Below are positions 16,134 to 33,871 of a DNA stretch of 64,000 nt, piece after piece (the stretch's first letter is position 1; each line of letters begins with the position of its first letter). Where the stretch lies: assembly GCA_963663965.2 (NCBI GenBank), contig CAXXFK010000033.1, positions 224,001 through 288,000 of the forward strand, written 5' to 3'. This DNA comes from Sedimentisphaerales bacterium (GTDB taxonomy: Bacteria > Planctomycetota > Phycisphaerae > Sedimentisphaerales > SM23-30). The position numbers and the translations under genes are program-made. The notes beneath the pieces were generated by a model. It was not told where the DNA came from and made no database searches. It saw only the letters and a program-made list of their open reading frames with translations.

Positions 16134-16205
16134 TGAGAGCGCTGGGATTCGAACCCAGAACCCACGGCTTAAAAGGCCGTTGCTCTACCATTGAGCTACG
16201 CTCCC
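16134..16205 (-). tRNA. tRNA-Lys (anticodon UUU), CCA not encoded
   Basis: Minus strand GGGAGCGTAGCTCAATGGTAGAGCA-ACGGC-CTTTTAA-GCCGT-GGGTT-CTGGG-TTCGAAT-CCCAG-CGCTCTC-A folds to a cloverleaf. Confidence 0.97.
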
Positions 16206-22670: not shown

Positions 22671-24116
<1,446 letters not shown>

Positions 24117-24202
24117 TAGATATGGCGAGCTAACGTATTAAACATATTGACCGGACCGTATCGTTTTCACTCGGTTCGACAATTTCTAGAAGGATTAAAT
24201 TT

Positions 24203-25954
24203 ATGGCAAAGAAACAGACCATGAACCTGTTCGAGGCCCATGTCGAAAAGCTGGTCGCCCTGATTGCCCTGGTTGTGCTGGCGTGGGTCGTCGTATTTAA
24301 ACTAATGGATCCTCCGGCTGTGGAGTTGCGAGGCGAGAGAATTCCCGCGACCGAAGCGGCCGATCAGGCATTGAGAAAGTCAGAGGAGTTGACCCGAACG
24401 TTAACCAATCAATCGCGGGAAGGCTCGCCACCGGCGGAAATCGCGCAGGCGCCGGGTATGTTCGAACCGGGGGACACCCATTTTAAATTGAACAAAGATC
24501 TGTATAATCAAAACGTCATCGTCAAGCAGCAAACCGACAAGCGTGAATATCTTCTTCCGCCGGTACCGGATCTGCGTGAGGTGAAAATCGATTTTACCCG
24601 AGGCCAGGCTCAGGCGTCCAATCGTACTGCCGGCGGGGGCGATATGGGATTAGGCATGGGCATGGGCATGGAGATGGGGGGGATGGGGACGCCACCCGCC
24701 CTGACAGCCAATCTGATCGATGTTGATTTTGTTACGGTGGAAGCGAAATTCAGTATGACCGATTTTTATAATGCGTTTGAAGCCAGCTTAAAAGGGCCGG
24801 ATATCGCCAAGCCGCTGTCAGAATATCCTGCTCAACCGGTGGTTGCGACCGTATTGCTGGAACGTCGCGAATTGCTGGCCGACGGGCAATGGGGGGATCC
24901 GGTATCGGTCCCGTTTTTGTCGACTAATCAAGCATTAAACCTCGGCGCGCTATCCATTGGGGATATCGAGCAAATGACCCCGGCGGTGTATGAGGCGTCA
25001 TTCGTACGGCGCGCTCAAGCCTATCAAGAGCAGATCAATTATCTCCAGCCGATTCCCTATAATATGTATGGAGAGACCTGGAAACCCCCATCAGAAAAAG
25101 CAGCAGAGTCGACTGCCAATACCCGAACCGCCGGGCCGGGTATGGTTGGAGGGATGGATGGAATGGGGATGGATCCCATGGGTATGGGTATGGGTATGGG
25201 TATGGGAGTAGGAGGTATGAGTGGCAATCTGAATACCAATGATCTGAAAGTATGGGCTCATGACAATACCGTCACGCCGGGAGCCATTTACGATTACCGG
25301 ATATCACTGGGTTTTTTCAATCCCATATACGGCAAAGAGTGGGCGGGTCCCGGTCAGGAAAAACTGAAGAATGAAAAGATTCTCTGGTCCAAGCGCGGCG
25401 TGCCTGAAAATGCCGTTCAGATTCCACCGCGTACGGTATTCTTTCCCAAGTCGGCCAGTGCCGGCAATCCCACCGAAAAAGTGGCCAGTGTGACCGTCTA
25501 TCATTATCAGGATGGCAAGTGGTATGATCGTTCGTACCGGATCCTGCCGGGTTCTGTGATCGGTTCGGTGGAAGAAGTACGCCCCAAAACCAGGCCGCAG
25601 CCCGCGCCCAGACCCGGTCAACCTCGAACCCCCGCTGCAGAGGAACCGGCAGTATCCGTCGATTTCCGGACGGGAATCACCGTGGTAGATATCTTACCAA
25701 ACAGTAAACGCTGGCTGCCGGGGCCATCCCTGACCGAGCAGATGGCCACGGATATCCTTTTCCGGTATCCGGATGGCTCGGTGCATCGTCTGGGGACAGA
25801 AAAGAATACCTGGCCGGAAAACCTGTCGAATGCCTATACCATGATTCAGAAAGAGTTACGCAAGCAACGTGATCGTGAGAGCCGTTCGCCCAATCAGCGG
25901 TCTGGCAATATGGGAATGGGAATGGATCCCACAGGCATGGGCATGGGTGGATAG
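24203..25954 (+). CDS. Membrane-anchored Gly/Met-rich protein of the pilM operon
   Basis: FEAHVEKLV + TM helix, HDNTVTPGAIYDYRI..FNP motif, GM tracts. Confidence 0.75.
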   Translation: MAKKQTMNLFEAHVEKLVALIALVVLAWVVVFKLMDPPAVELRGERIPATEAADQALRKSEELTRTLTNQSREGSPPAEIAQAPGMFEPGDTHFKLNKDLYNQNVIVKQQTDKREYLLPPVPDLREVKIDFTRGQAQASNRTAGGGDMGLGMGMGMEMGGMGTPPALTANLIDVDFVTVEAKFSMTDFYNAFEASLKGPDIAKPLSEYPAQPVVATVLLERRELLADGQWGDPVSVPFLSTNQALNLGALSIGDIEQMTPAVYEASFVRRAQAYQEQINYLQPIPYNMYGETWKPPSEKAAESTANTRTAGPGMVGGMDGMGMDPMGMGMGMGMGVGGMSGNLNTNDLKVWAHDNTVTPGAIYDYRISLGFFNPIYGKEWAGPGQEKLKNEKILWSKRGVPENAVQIPPRTVFFPKSASAGNPTEKVASVTVYHYQDGKWYDRSYRILPGSVIGSVEEVRPKTRPQPAPRPGQPRTPAAEEPAVSVDFRTGITVVDILPNSKRWLPGPSLTEQMATDILFRYPDGSVHRLGTEKNTWPENLSNAYTMIQKELRKQRDRESRSPNQRSGNMGMGMDPTGMGMGG

Positions 25955-29382: not shown

Positions 29383-29919
29383 TTATACGGTATTCTCATC
29401 CGGGGAATCAGTATCCGGCAATGATGCTGTTTCGTCGCCGGCGTTTGCATTCTGGCCGCCGGCTTTGCTGATGATTTCATCCAGCAGCAGGCCGAGTTTG
29501 TCGTAGTGTTTATCGGAAAATTTCAAAGCTCTTTCCGAACCGTTTTCCTGAAAGAACAGGATGAAATACCCTTTTTCCTGGAAATTCCGTTTGTCCAGTT
29601 TGGTAATGGCTGAATAGGGAATAGCTGTTTTGCCATCGATTTGGAGCCCATTGTCATCGGCCACTATTTTTCTTTTTTTTAATAATGCCATGCTGACAAA
29701 ACAGTAAATGGCGAACGCGCCGGTTAAGAATGGGGTGGCCCGGTTGATTTTCAGATCAAGCGTGGGCTGACCTTCGCCTTTTTCCATTTCTTTTTTATAA
29801 TAATTGCTGTTGGGGTTGTAGCCGTCATTGATGAACCAGACCGAGACCCCAAGCAGAATAAAACCAAAAATGAGGAAGTTTTTAATTGAATAATTGCTGG
29901 ATGGAATTTCAAGCGCCAT
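29383..29919 (-). CDS. Hypothetical membrane protein (two TM helices plus PH-like domain)
   Basis: AAAGGA RBS; WFINDGY motif after first TM. Confidence 0.75.
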   Translation of the reverse strand: MALEIPSSNYSIKNFLIFGFILLGVSVWFINDGYNPNSNYYKKEMEKGEGQPTLDLKINRATPFLTGAFAIYCFVSMALLKKRKIVADDNGLQIDGKTAIPYSAITKLDKRNFQEKGYFILFFQENGSERALKFSDKHYDKLGLLLDEIISKAGGQNANAGDETASLPDTDSPDENTV

Positions 29920-30173
29920 TATATCATCCTTTTCAGAATTCGATCATCAAGATATCTGTCAGTATATATAATCATCGACATAATACGAGTATTAAATAGA
30001 GGCTATTGTAATAAAAAAAGTATATTGTTACCTAAATTAATAAGAGTTTAATGTTATCCGGGCCTTTAAAACTGTTTATTTTCCGCTAACTTTTCATTTC
30101 TGATCCAGGCAATAAATAAAATACGATTCATTTTATATTAATACGTTAATCCAGTGAATCTGGTCAACAGAAT

Positions 30174-30202
30174 TTGCCTTTTGTGGAAATATATGTTAGA
30201 AT
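30174..30202 (+). promoter_or_regulatory. Sigma70-type promoter with extended -10
   Basis: TTGCCT (30174-30179), 17 nt, TGn-TAGAAT (30194-30202). Confidence 0.7.
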
Positions 30203-30208
30203 ATTCAT

Positions 30209-30494
30209 GGTGAAGTTAAACCGTGTTCAGGATATATCCGGCACGCTAACTTATATAAGTCGGCTGTGAAGCACGTCTTCGCAGCCGGAAAATAAGCGCT
30301 TGAAAGGGCGATGAATATATCAAGACAATTCAAACAGGGCCTCGGGCCCATTTATCGAGGATGCGATCCGTCGCACCCCCTAATTAAAGCAGTTAGCAAA
30401 CTGCTGGCGTTTCTTGCCTGAGCATCAGGTAAAAGAAAGCCAACCCCGAAACGAGCAGGTCATGGTGATCAAACGTCATGCCTGCTACTTTTTT
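30209..30494 (+). ncRNA. Candidate structured non-coding RNA, ~285 nt, family unassigned (5' half loosely 6S-like)
   Basis: Promoter upstream, at least seven helices with G-U pairs and GAAA/UCCG tetraloops, terminator at the 3' end, no credible ORF. Confidence 0.65.
30454..30494 (+). terminator. Intrinsic terminator
   Basis: AGCAGG-T-CATGGTG / CGTCATG-CCTGCT then T-run. Confidence 0.8.
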
Positions 30495-30553
30495 GCGCGT
30501 ACCAAACGACAAGGCACGACTCAGCGTGCCTTATCGTTATGGGGGAGGTATAT

Positions 30554-31993
30554 TTATTTATCGAAGGATAGAATCTTAATGTTGCGATACCAGACCGGCG
30601 CGCCGTGATCCTGGAAGCACAGGTGTCCAATCCGGGGCAGGTCTTTGTAGGCGACATCGAATTTATTGGGGGTGCCATCGGGGTTTTTGTGGGCTTCTGT
30701 CCATTTATTGAGGTCCATATCGATGGTGGTCTGGCCGTTGAGCATCACCAGAACACGATTGTCGATAGCGGTGATGGTCAGGCGATTCCATTCGCCGGCG
30801 GGTTTGTTGGCATTGACTGAGGGCGCCAGGATGTCAAAGATACCGGCGCAACTGTGGATATTAACGGCTTTGCCATAGTCGTTCTGGATCTGGACTTCGA
30901 TCCAGGGCAGCCAGTTTTTGGTATCACCGGTACGCAGGAACACACCGCTATTGGTGTTGTCGGCGACTTTGAAACTGCAATCGAGCACGAAGTTGCCGTA
31001 TTGTTCTTTGGTCCAGATATCGCCATCGCCATTGCGGGTGAGCAGGCCGTCGTTGAAAGACCAACTGCCTTCTTTAAGAATAGCGTTACTGAGGTCATTT
31101 TTGAACAGAGATTTCCAGCCGCCGGGTTTGAGTTTGGCGCTGTAGCTGTCGAAGAACTCAACACATTTGCGGATTTCGGGCATGGAAGTCGTCCAGTTAT
31201 ATTCGTATTCGATCGAGAAGGTGCCGGTGAATTTCTGGCGATTGAGTTCATCGAGGATGCGCGGAACATTGCCCAGGCCCTGGCCCCAGATGGTATCGTG
31301 TTGTTGATCGGTATTGTTATAAAGCTCTTTAAGGTGAATTGTCTTGACGCGTCCCTGGAGTTTTTTGAGGCATTCGACGGGATCGAAACCGGAGCGAACC
31401 CAGTGGCCGGTATCACAACAGGCGCCCAGATATTGGCTGCGGCCTTTGAGTTGGTCCAGGACGATCTGTGGATCCCAGTAGCGAGTGGGTTTGGGATGGT
31501 TATGGATGGCGACGTTGATTTTGTATTCTTTGGCGAGTTTGTCGATGGTGTCGTAGGCTTCAAAGGCCGGTTCGGTGACGATGGTCCGTATCCCCATGTC
31601 TTTGGCGAAGTCGAACACTTTGCGATCCTGTTCTTCGTTGCCGGATAGCCCGGTAACACCAAAATTGACCAGCGAGATGCCGGTTTGCTGAAGTTTCAGT
31701 TTGATTTTCTGACGCGTTTCATCGGACATGGAAGGTTCAAATTTGGCATCTGAGCCTTTTTCGATGGTCTGGCCGGGGTAAGCTTCGATCCAGGACAGGC
31801 CCAGGTCAGCGGTTTTATCAACGGCTTCCATAAAGGTATATTGGTTAAATGACCAGCATTGGATGGCCAGTTTCCAACCGGGAGCCGCATCAGTAGGGGG
31901 ATGGACGGCATTGGGAACACCAGCCGCTGACAGGAAAGCGACGCAAGAGAGCAGGATGACTAATCCTGATAAAAGCCATTTTGAATTCAACAT
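30554..31993 (-). CDS. Secreted fusion: xylose-isomerase-like TIM barrel (AP_endonuc_2) plus DUF1080 domain
   Basis: Signal peptide; IHNH, DTGHW, IHLKE, SIEYE; then NSGVFLR, IEVQIQND, GEWNRLTI, FQDHG..VWYRNIKI; GAAAGGA RBS before ATG 31993. Confidence 0.88.
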   Translation of the reverse strand: MLNSKWLLSGLVILLSCVAFLSAAGVPNAVHPPTDAAPGWKLAIQCWSFNQYTFMEAVDKTADLGLSWIEAYPGQTIEKGSDAKFEPSMSDETRQKIKLKLQQTGISLVNFGVTGLSGNEEQDRKVFDFAKDMGIRTIVTEPAFEAYDTIDKLAKEYKINVAIHNHPKPTRYWDPQIVLDQLKGRSQYLGACCDTGHWVRSGFDPVECLKKLQGRVKTIHLKELYNNTDQQHDTIWGQGLGNVPRILDELNRQKFTGTFSIEYEYNWTTSMPEIRKCVEFFDSYSAKLKPGGWKSLFKNDLSNAILKEGSWSFNDGLLTRNGDGDIWTKEQYGNFVLDCSFKVADNTNSGVFLRTGDTKNWLPWIEVQIQNDYGKAVNIHSCAGIFDILAPSVNANKPAGEWNRLTITAIDNRVLVMLNGQTTIDMDLNKWTEAHKNPDGTPNKFDVAYKDLPRIGHLCFQDHGAPVWYRNIKILSFDK

Positions 31994-32546
31994 GTCAGAT
32001 CCTTTCAATAAAATCGGGTTATCCATATGATGTCAGACTGTTAGAGTATTATATGGTATTGATACCAGGATCGACCAGCCCGATCGGACAGACGGATCGA
32101 TAAGATCGATAGGGGTATTCATTTTTTAAATGTTAATATGAGTTGGCTTACCGGTTCGAAGTTAGATTATTGTAACTACTTTAAATAAAAGTATTTATGA
32201 TATTTATTTCTAGCAAGCCAAGTCAGTTTTTTCCACTGGTGATCGAGATTCGGTCTGGTAATAATATAATGGGTAGTACAGGGATATTATTGCATCAATA
32301 AAGAGAAGTAATGCCTGGGGATTTTGATTGTAATCGGGTGTGTTAAGTTAAGCTGTGGGAAACAGTAAGCATCGGTTAGGATATTTTAGTGGGATGGATG
32401 TAAGGGTTGTTTCTGAATACGGGCTGGTAATTTGACGCTTAATGGGCTGCCCAGCAATTGGCTTGTTATTGAATGATTATAGAGTTTGTTTGTGACGTAA
32501 AATTATTCAAATTGGCTGATGTTTATGCGTTCAGCGTATAAAATAA

Positions 32547-33871
32547 GGCTCATCCGGTTAATGAGTAGTTTTGGTTATGGATATGATGGATCCGGAGATA
32601 GAAGTATTCCTGATCGCGGTAGCCATGAGCCATTCGTTGCAGGAGGCCGATTTTACGGTTATTGACTTCGACTTTGCTGGTGCTGATGGGATGGTCATAC
32701 CAATTGAGCAGGAAGGGTTTCCAGAGTTGCAGTTGTTTGGCGGCATCCAGCAGGATCCGAATCCCGCTGGTTTGCGCCTGGCTGATCCAGCGTTTAAGTT
32801 CCTGTTCAGCCAGCGGAGCCGTGATCGCATCAAAAAGGAGACGGAGCCGTTCTTTCATGTAATAGGCGGTGGCCAGCGGCTGGTTGAGTTGCAGAGCCTC
32901 CTGCAACCGGTGCCGTTCATCTTTGGCGCTATCGGCATGGGATTTAAGGTTCTCCGGCGCTTTGAGCAGCAGCCAGCGGCTGCCTTTAAGTACCGCTTTG
33001 CCCATGGTATCGGCCTCCCGGTACAAATCCCGGCGTAAACTGGTCAGTTTGTCGTTAAACCATTTGACCAGATGAAAATGGTCCAGCACCAGTTTGGCTT
33101 GCGGCAGTTCTTTCAGGACACTGGTCATAAAACCACTGGCCATATCGGTAGCCACCGCGGCAATCACCGCCCGGCTGCGTCGGACACGCCCCCAGAATCC
33201 CACCAGGGCCTCTTGGCCTTTGCCCTGGCCGATATGCAAGATTTGTCCGCTTTCCAGGTCGGTTACCAGCGAGATGTATTTGCTTTTCCTGCCCAGATAC
33301 AATTCGTCAATCCCCAGATAACGAACCTTTTTCAGGGAAATCTTTCGGTACCGTCGACCTAGCCAGGACTTATGAATCGATTTGATGGTATCCCAGCTTA
33401 AGCCGGTCCGTCGGGCCACCTCTTGCAGGGAAGCCGCCTGACATAAATCGATGACATACCGTTCCAACGCATGGGTGTAATGCTTCTTGGGGTCGGCAAA
33501 TGGCAGATGAGGCTGACGAATGGCCCCGCACGCCAGACATTTCAATCGGGGAATAGTGACAAGCAACTCCATTTGACGCAGACCGGCGGGTACCATGGCA
33601 AACCTCCGGGCCTTGTGACCGAAGTAAATGAAATTACGGGAGTTACAACAAGGGCAACGCAGACTATCCGCCGGCAAGATGCCGTGAATCACGCTCTTGC
33701 CCGCAAAAATATTCTGTCTTTTGGTATTGAACACCTCGAACACCAAAAGTATGATACAACATACTTGTGGACATGACTTTAGCTCCTAATATGAGGTTTT
33801 ATTTTTTTCCTCAAACAGTAAAGTCATGTCTCTCTTTTTGCAACATTAACTACTCATTTTTCGGAAGAACC
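32547..33871 (-). mobile_element. ISL3-family insertion sequence, 1325 bp
   Basis: Terminal IRs GGCTCATCCGGTTAATGAGTAGTT vs GGTTCTTCCGAAAAATGAGTAGTT (19/24); 8-bp target duplication TAAAATAA at 32539-32546 and 33872-33879. Confidence 0.95.
32550..33774 (-). pseudogene. ISL3 transposase with a +1 frameshift near codon 23
   Basis: CPCC and CLACG zinc finger, LGIDE, VATDM, LDHFH, KVEVNNRKI; ATG 33774 (MSTSMLYHTFGVRG, AGGAG RBS) is one base out of frame at the T5 run 33705-33709. Confidence 0.85.

Follow-up and report, generated by a model that had tools for sequence, protein, structure and literature searches.

The long multi-hairpin small RNAs of Gram-positive bacteria provide a comparison for RNA-RNA base pairing that operates independently of Hfq. 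Decoy RNAs, as presented in the excerpted text of PMC8058203, consist of concatenated binding motifs, and SpoVG binds several RNAs in Listeria according to the excerpt of PMC4959528. We compared with such systems an element of the plus strand in a 64,000-nt stretch of DNA from a Sedimentisphaerales bacterium (hereafter, the window). Judging by its sequence and those of its homologs, the segment from 30209 to 30494 is very probably transcribed into a structural RNA, and we regard it as a stand-alone, vertically inherited non-coding RNA gene of one Sedimentisphaerales family. By the same criteria, the RNA family is uncatalogued and is not 6S RNA.

The RNA gene and its predicted fold

The element sits in a 634-nt gap separating two minus-strand genes. 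Its predicted parts, its neighbors and other features of the window are as follows.

30174-30202, plus strand: sigma-70-type promoter (-35 TTGCCT at 30174-30179, 17-nt spacer, TG at 30194-30195, -10 TAGAAT at 30197-30202)
30209-30494, plus strand: predicted RNA of ~287 nt, with a putative start 6 to 7 nt past the -10 box
30213-30252, plus strand: M1, first hairpin of an optional 5′ module (core CCGUGUU/GGCACG at 30221-30245), with a counterpart in the 12 module-bearing homologs
30246-30259, plus strand: AU-rich linker between M1 and M2, (C/U)AUAUA-like and ~11 to 16 nt long in homologs
30260-30288, plus strand: M2 hairpin, consensus GGCUGCG/CGCAGCC, in 12 of 24 homologs
30297-30310, plus strand: CGCUU-GAAA-GGGCG hairpin of the fold, with no consistent counterpart in homologs
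30324-30330, plus strand: mostly unpaired conserved motif GACAAUU (ACAWWU or RACAWWU in the family)
30337-30349, plus strand: PA hairpin of GGGC/GCCC type; most single folds have a hairpin at the equivalent place
30359-30380, plus strand: PB hairpin, GACUGUG/CACAGCC in the family, diverged in the window (core 30362-30375)
30388-30405, plus strand: PC hairpin, GCAGY/RCUGC in the family, ~8 to 11 nt past PB
30406-30441, plus strand: PD hairpin, stacked 0 to 2 nt after PC, with a variable tip
30454-30494, plus strand: intrinsic terminator (stem 30454-30486, U-run 30489-30494), GCAAGCUC/GAGCUUGC plus U-run in the family
30505-30538, minus strand: separate hairpin outside the RNA, probably the terminator of the 490-aa gene given its place after the stop at 30554
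29383-29919, minus strand: divergent neighbor encoding a 178-aa protein with no Pfam family, two likely membrane helices and a PH-like domain
30554-32026, minus strand: convergent neighbor encoding a 490-aa protein (xylose-isomerase-like TIM barrel and 3-keto-disaccharide hydrolase)
32550-33746, minus strand: ISL3-family transposase
22671-25954, plus strand: two ORFs with Met-Gly-rich low-complexity stretches, including a 583-aa ORF with no Pfam match
16134-16205, minus strand: tRNA gene, the sole Rfam match at gathering score in the window

The first-pass annotation had proposed the promoter (TTGCCT-17-(TGn)TAGAAT), M2, the CGCUU-GAAA-GGGCG hairpin, PA, the PB core, PC, PD and the terminator, and all of them were recovered at these positions, the core pairs of the hairpins reaching probabilities of about 0.75 to 1.0 in the ensemble fold. 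The terminator was missing from a simple terminator scan; two bases separate its stem from the U-run. The annotation had also enclosed the 5′ part in a long-range helix (TGTT/GACA and GATATAT/ATATATC). These segments are complementary, but a fold forced to contain the helix is 2.1 kcal/mol less stable, and across the full ensemble no pair of the helix rises above 5%. The helix is replaced by the local hairpin M1, which homologs keep, and it is not conserved: distant upstream pairing of the motif region has a median probability of 0.02 and exceeds 0.5 in 2 of the 24 homologs.

Both strands fold well (z = -4.66 on the plus strand and -3.85 on the minus strand), so that energy alone does not settle the strand. 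The three intergenic 200-nt segments covering the element rank 248 to 266 of 4,920 genome-wide, with z about -3.2 (top ~5%). Taken alone, the element, which is single copy in the genome, is thus clearly structured yet not extreme among intergenic regions. Its strand and its reality are established by the homologs, through their G-U and A-C cells and the strand of their promoters and U-runs.

Some observations concern the locus and its genome more generally. A DNA contig of run X2 (178 nt, single contig, depth 3.8) spans 30137-30314 with 9 differing letters and 2 gaps; four of its five listed substitutions lie upstream of the start and outside the hexamers, and the fifth would add an M1 pair. 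We do not count this contig as evidence. Among the sequencing runs listed for the locus, none was an RNA run. The host genome holds three intergenic repeat families (C20:293246-293430, C40:158204-158390 and C33:44471-44650), two of them ~170 to 185 nt, palindromic and MITE-like (28 and 36 copies) and one multi-hairpin and BIME-like (40 copies). Its most stable intergenic fold is a single near-perfect inverted repeat of ~190 nt at C28:96421-96620 (z = -14.8).

A family of homologs with a conserved 3′ core

Searches with blastn over 25 genomes of the host's family returned short chance matches only, and a one-sequence model run against whole genomes (150 of the order, 150 of the class and 150 of the phylum) gave no convincing match. 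These negative searches are insensitive, since the same model succeeded only on neighbor-gene loci, with three true matches at 20 to 24 bits, in three family genomes, among 52 loci of the neighboring gene. Reading by eye of the regions upstream of the 178-aa gene revealed the RNA in 19 family genomes. Sixteen of the 19 neighbor-gene loci went into a model of the 3′ core; the host genome was left out, as were G001 and G002, which aligned poorly. With this held-out model, positions 30358-30493 of the window scored 40.3 bits, the best match in the genome (next match, 26.9). The eight family members held out of the model, host included, scored 40 to 88 bits (G005, 88.2; G012, 56.7; G011, 47.9; G010, 46.7; G002, 44.7; G013, 44.5; G001, 44.0), and in G005, G010, G011, G012 and G013 the promoter, the motif and PA, which are features outside the model, stand upstream.

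Homologs of 245 to 527 nt were found in 24 of the 25 genomes of the host's family, across 18 genera and with one convincing copy each. G019, the sole family genome without a match, is 62% complete. In the L105 genome the RNA scores 93.8 bits; four other Sedimentisphaerales records were without it. The RNA adjoins the divergent 178-aa protein gene in 19 of the 24 genomes, host included. In G012 and G013 (genus g10) it lies between tsaD and alr (alanine racemase), away from its usual neighbor, and G010 and G011 match the same tsaD/alr region; this relocation indicates that the RNA moves as an independent gene. Its retention despite a doubling of length and changes of neighbors points to selection for function. 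The 178-aa protein occurs throughout the order (145 of 151 genomes), recG following in the host's family, and its structural model (pLDDT 81) weakly resembles PH/PTB/FERM domains (best E value, 1.6e-3). The 490-aa gene is not linked to the RNA in other genomes, and beside 80 of its homologs no match to the RNA was found.

Of the 126 order genomes searched beyond the family, 18 yielded matches, all of at most 34.3 bits; the seven inspected had no promoter-motif-PA layout and were mostly gene-end terminators. Six class-level loci of up to 39 bits were likewise gene-end terminators without the upstream features. Because just 21 candidates were scored per genome, by which three true family members were missed, the range of the RNA may be wider than one family. 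Phage and plasmid collections yielded no match, and exact patterns none in viral sequences or in GTDB. We rejected one metagenome exact-pattern match as chance (inside a LysR-like ORF), 20 viral matches to the core pattern (at most 15.7 bits, fold absent) and an nhmmer match at C42 (E = 0.13) in a coding region.

The homologs share a layout of promoter, mostly unpaired RACAWWU motif, four hairpins and terminator. The pattern TTG(C/A)NN-16/17-TANNNT with a TG element stands upstream of 24 of 24 homologs, compared with 4.6% of shuffles, the pattern having been derived from the same sequences, and in all 24 the promoter shares its strand with the U-run. The core runs from ACAWWU through PA, PB, an A-rich linker of 8 to 11 nt, PC and PD, stacked on PC, to the terminator (GCAAGCUC/GAGCUUGC, U-run), and natural deletions among the 24 homologs map the minimal domain, from motif to terminator, to about 170 to 190 nt. 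An exact ACAWWU is found 22 to 50 nt upstream of PB in 20 homologs (ACAUAU in 12, ACAAUU in 8) and one-letter variants in the remaining 4; the median unpaired probability of the motif is 0.65, versus about 0.41 across the whole RNA. The distances from PB to PC and from PC to PD hardly vary. Conserved letters fall in stems and short linkers, whereas the loops are free to change, in length as well, with pairing preserved, and stacked CUG/CAG triplets number 88 versus 29 to 40 in shuffles. The 5′ part measures 60 to 340 nt and in 12 of the 24 homologs contains a second module made of M1, the AU-rich linker and M2. The first-pass annotation had described a 6S-like 5′ part followed by "extra" 3′ hairpins; the hairpins stand, but it is the 3′ half that is conserved and the 5′ part that is variable and optional.

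Covariation was counted with PA left out. The model-fitted alignment comprises 22 sequences and leaves out G010 and G011; in it, 91.5% of cells are paired and double changes occur in 24 of 29 pairs, which 0 of 500 shuffles reach; slid controls gave 30 to 42%. In a structure-blind MAFFT alignment of 16 sequences, 86% of cells are paired and 19 of 29 pairs show double changes; "further pair types" were not above shuffles there (86/500). A tree-aware G-test, run as an R-scape-like script and not R-scape itself, passed 9 of 29 pairs on the fitted alignment, with each of the four helices represented, and 5 of 29 (PB, PC and terminator) on the structure-blind one; no unproposed pair passed on either. 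PD, 63% paired in the MAFFT alignment, was significant on the fitted alignment only. Of the 16 pairs of the 5′ module, none was significant in the tree-aware test; M2 has 99.1% of its cells paired and double changes in 4 of 9 pairs, and M1 has 72% paired. Across the homologs there are 32 G-U and 8 A-C cells, which favors the plus strand as first proposed, whereas the GAAA and UCCG tetraloops cited along with the G-U pairs are not conserved.

Scanned with Rfam 15, 6S model included, neither the element nor 23 homolog loci matched any family at gathering score, and the element matched none at E ≤ 10. The sole Rfam overlap in the homolog loci, on the opposite strand in L179, was with GcvB, which scored 30.9 bits against a cut-off of 42. 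Genes for RNase P RNA, tmRNA and SRP RNA, from which the element had been told apart at the outset, are found elsewhere in the host genome above cut-off. One of the two identities first suggested, an undescribed RNA class with its own promoter and terminator, is therefore borne out by the distribution, the covarying helices and the Rfam scan.

Possible functions of the RNA

Comparison establishes the gene, its limits and the fold from PB to the terminator. As to function, the reading that we favor, plausible while far from assured, is that of a decoy or scaffold that binds protein. The RNA would be transcribed from the conserved sigma-70-type promoter as far as its own terminator; its repeated units, an AU-rich single strand (ACAWWU or AUAUA) followed by hairpins with CUG/CAG stems, would bind and titrate an RNA-binding regulator or enzyme, and the optional 5′ module might add binding sites, in the way that CsrB-type decoys differ in their number of repeats. 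Protein recognition fits better than loop-seed pairing with the conserved stems and linkers, free loops, fixed spacings, recurrent CUG/CAG stems and a losable unit. The repeated-unit reading is weakened in that its motifs are short and were chosen after the sequences had been seen.

The partner of such a decoy is not Hfq, which was found in 0 of 101 order genomes in a search whose positive controls matched. Nor is it probably CsrA: GGA is not enriched in the 24 homologs (108 versus 125 ± 9 expected; ANGGA, 32 versus 35), so that this best-known decoy target does not fit. ARN triplets are mildly enriched (63 versus 42.5). The host csrA gene adjoins two genes that we take to be fliW-like and flagellin-like. 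SpoVG is one candidate, with nothing that points to it specifically; present in 95 of the 101 order genomes, it does not track the distribution of the RNA. ANTAR proteins were found in 0 of 101, in a search that matched no control genome either. We rejected the 178-aa neighbor as partner, as its model has no RNA-binding fold and the RNA is unlinked from its gene in genus g10, and whole RNAs folded as duplexes with spoVG leaders gave no interpretable result. As a separate observation, the SpoVG proteins at C29:178942-179295 and L240-L252 carry an inserted CxxC..CxxC stretch and an acidic tail; lengths are 155 to 211 aa in the 13 family members read, versus 146 aa in one protein recovered from another family.

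Taken further, the element could represent a modular bacterial RNP RNA of a new class, in which tandem units of AU-rich strand and CUG/CAG hairpin, variable in number, assemble or sequester an as yet unrecognized RNA-binding protein in an Hfq-less lineage. We consider this unlikely as a whole; if true, planctomycete post-transcriptional control would be unlike that by Hfq, CsrA, ProQ or 6S. With no Hfq found in the order, the RNA offers a ready bait for finding post-transcriptional control in Sedimentisphaerales.

Among the alternatives to a decoy or scaffold, the one that survives best, possible if doubtful, is an Hfq-independent base-pairing small RNA, whose ACAWWU motif and A/C-rich linkers would pair with mRNA leaders while the 3′ hairpins stabilize it. 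The hexamer, conserved and single stranded, could just as well act as a pairing seed: it is mostly unpaired, its ACAU is complementary to AUG, the gene has its own promoter and terminator, and pairing by small RNAs need not depend on Hfq. Nevertheless, just 6 nt are conserved, in two variants, and the loops are not. Moreover, a target screen in the host genome alone, with five single-stranded segments against 5,200 start regions (rough start calls), gave best duplexes of -15 to -21 kcal/mol and nothing clearly above shuffles. Four of the five segments were within the shuffled minima and PA-PB was slightly lower, at -19.0 versus -15.7 to -17.8 kcal/mol (shuffles on half the set).

It is improbable that the RNA binds RNA polymerase, be it as an extended 6S RNA or as a separate class like Ms1 and CoRP. 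Its size does resemble those of Ms1 (~300 nt) and CoRP (~500 nt), two RNAs that, according to the excerpt of PMC11077062, had escaped bioinformatic searches for 6S; its promoter is strong and of housekeeping type, and the host assembly contains no canonical 6S. The same excerpt, however, describes one type of abundant RNA polymerase-associated RNA per species, and in 22 of the 24 relatives this RNA and a canonical 6S occur together (22 match RF00013, 20 of them above cut-off). A model that we built from 22 family 6S genes, and that finds 6S in 143 of 150 other order genomes, gave the element 2 bits and no match in the 24 homolog loci. Pairs spanning at least 80 nt make up 0.03 to 0.35 of all pairs in homologs, versus a median of 0.60 and a minimum of 0.42 in the 22 family 6S RNAs, and the closing helix has the very low median probability given above. 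Given the 2-bit score, the coexistence with 6S and the lack of a rod-like fold, we rejected the other identity first suggested, that of an unusual extended 6S RNA.

The host assembly (94.6% complete, 42 contigs) gave no 6S by Rfam, the family model or nhmmer, for which an assembly gap is a likelier cause than true loss. The slot at C42:161685-161791, where many relatives carry 6S beside a large gene, presumably pheT-like, contains none in the host. The family 6S genes are themselves well conserved (71% mean column identity, L024-L045), two of them narrowly missing the Rfam cut-off, with 42.6 and 41.8 bits.

It is very unlikely that the element is not a transcript of its own, being instead a terminator stack, a DNA operator array, a repeat element or the leader of the divergent gene. 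Such a view could draw on the several palindromic repeat families of the genome, on the CTGT..ACAG of PB, which resembles an operator, and on the modest rank of the region, merely in the top ~5% of intergenic segments. Against it, pairing is kept despite varying loop lengths, the excess of G-U over A-C cells lies on one strand, promoter and U-run are kept in 24 of 24 homologs, and the RNA moves independently of its neighbors. The first-pass annotation had seen no sense gene downstream, which is the case in the host genome, and had considered many degenerate copies of a MITE; the single genomic copy contradicts a MITE or REP repeat.

Least likely of all is that the RNA encodes a small peptide, either as an mRNA or with a dual function: short ORFs occur in most homologs, with SD-like purine runs before the motif in some, but ATG ORFs of at least 12 aa share no position or sequence on inspection of the 24 homologs, in keeping with the original finding of no credible ORF, and are absent from 3 of them, and length changes are not limited to multiples of three.

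Comparison with described RNAs

In the literature covered, mostly open-access main text, we found no description of this RNA or of Sedimentisphaerales small RNAs, and PMC11266412 makes no mention of non-coding RNA, ncRNA or small RNA. It may be that the supplementary candidate-RNA lists of large comparative screens hold this family.

Like the ProQ-bound structured small RNAs of PMC8058203, which the excerpt describes as highly structured, mostly Hfq independent and ended by a strong 3′ terminator, the family RNA is a structured RNA closed by a terminator; that excerpt places ProQ homologues in proteobacteria, whereas the family RNA is planctomycete. Listeria Rli31 is likewise a structured small RNA in a SpoVG-encoding bacterium (PMC4959528, in excerpt), but its size and fold differ, and SpoVG is found order-wide whereas the family RNA is confined to one family. 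With the CsrB/RsmZ decoys the RNA shares a multi-hairpin, terminator-closed architecture of variable length with repeated units, in a genome that encodes CsrA; it differs from them in having no GGA enrichment and in carrying its conserved letters in stems and linkers, not in loops.

Ms1 and CoRP are, in the excerpt of PMC11077062, lineage-restricted structured RNAs of 300 to 500 nt that 6S homology searches missed, all of which recalls the present family. They occur, according to that excerpt, where 6S has not been found, and the family RNA, compared with CoRP by description, has no Rfam match. 6S RNA (RF00013) resembles the family RNA in being a stand-alone, single-copy, vertically inherited gene with a sigma-70-type promoter and a terminator. 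The family RNA, however, scores with neither RF00013 nor the family 6S model and coexists with 6S in 22 genomes, and where 6S RNA is a rod of ~185 nt with a central bubble, the family RNA is a chain of local hairpins extending over 245 to 527 nt.
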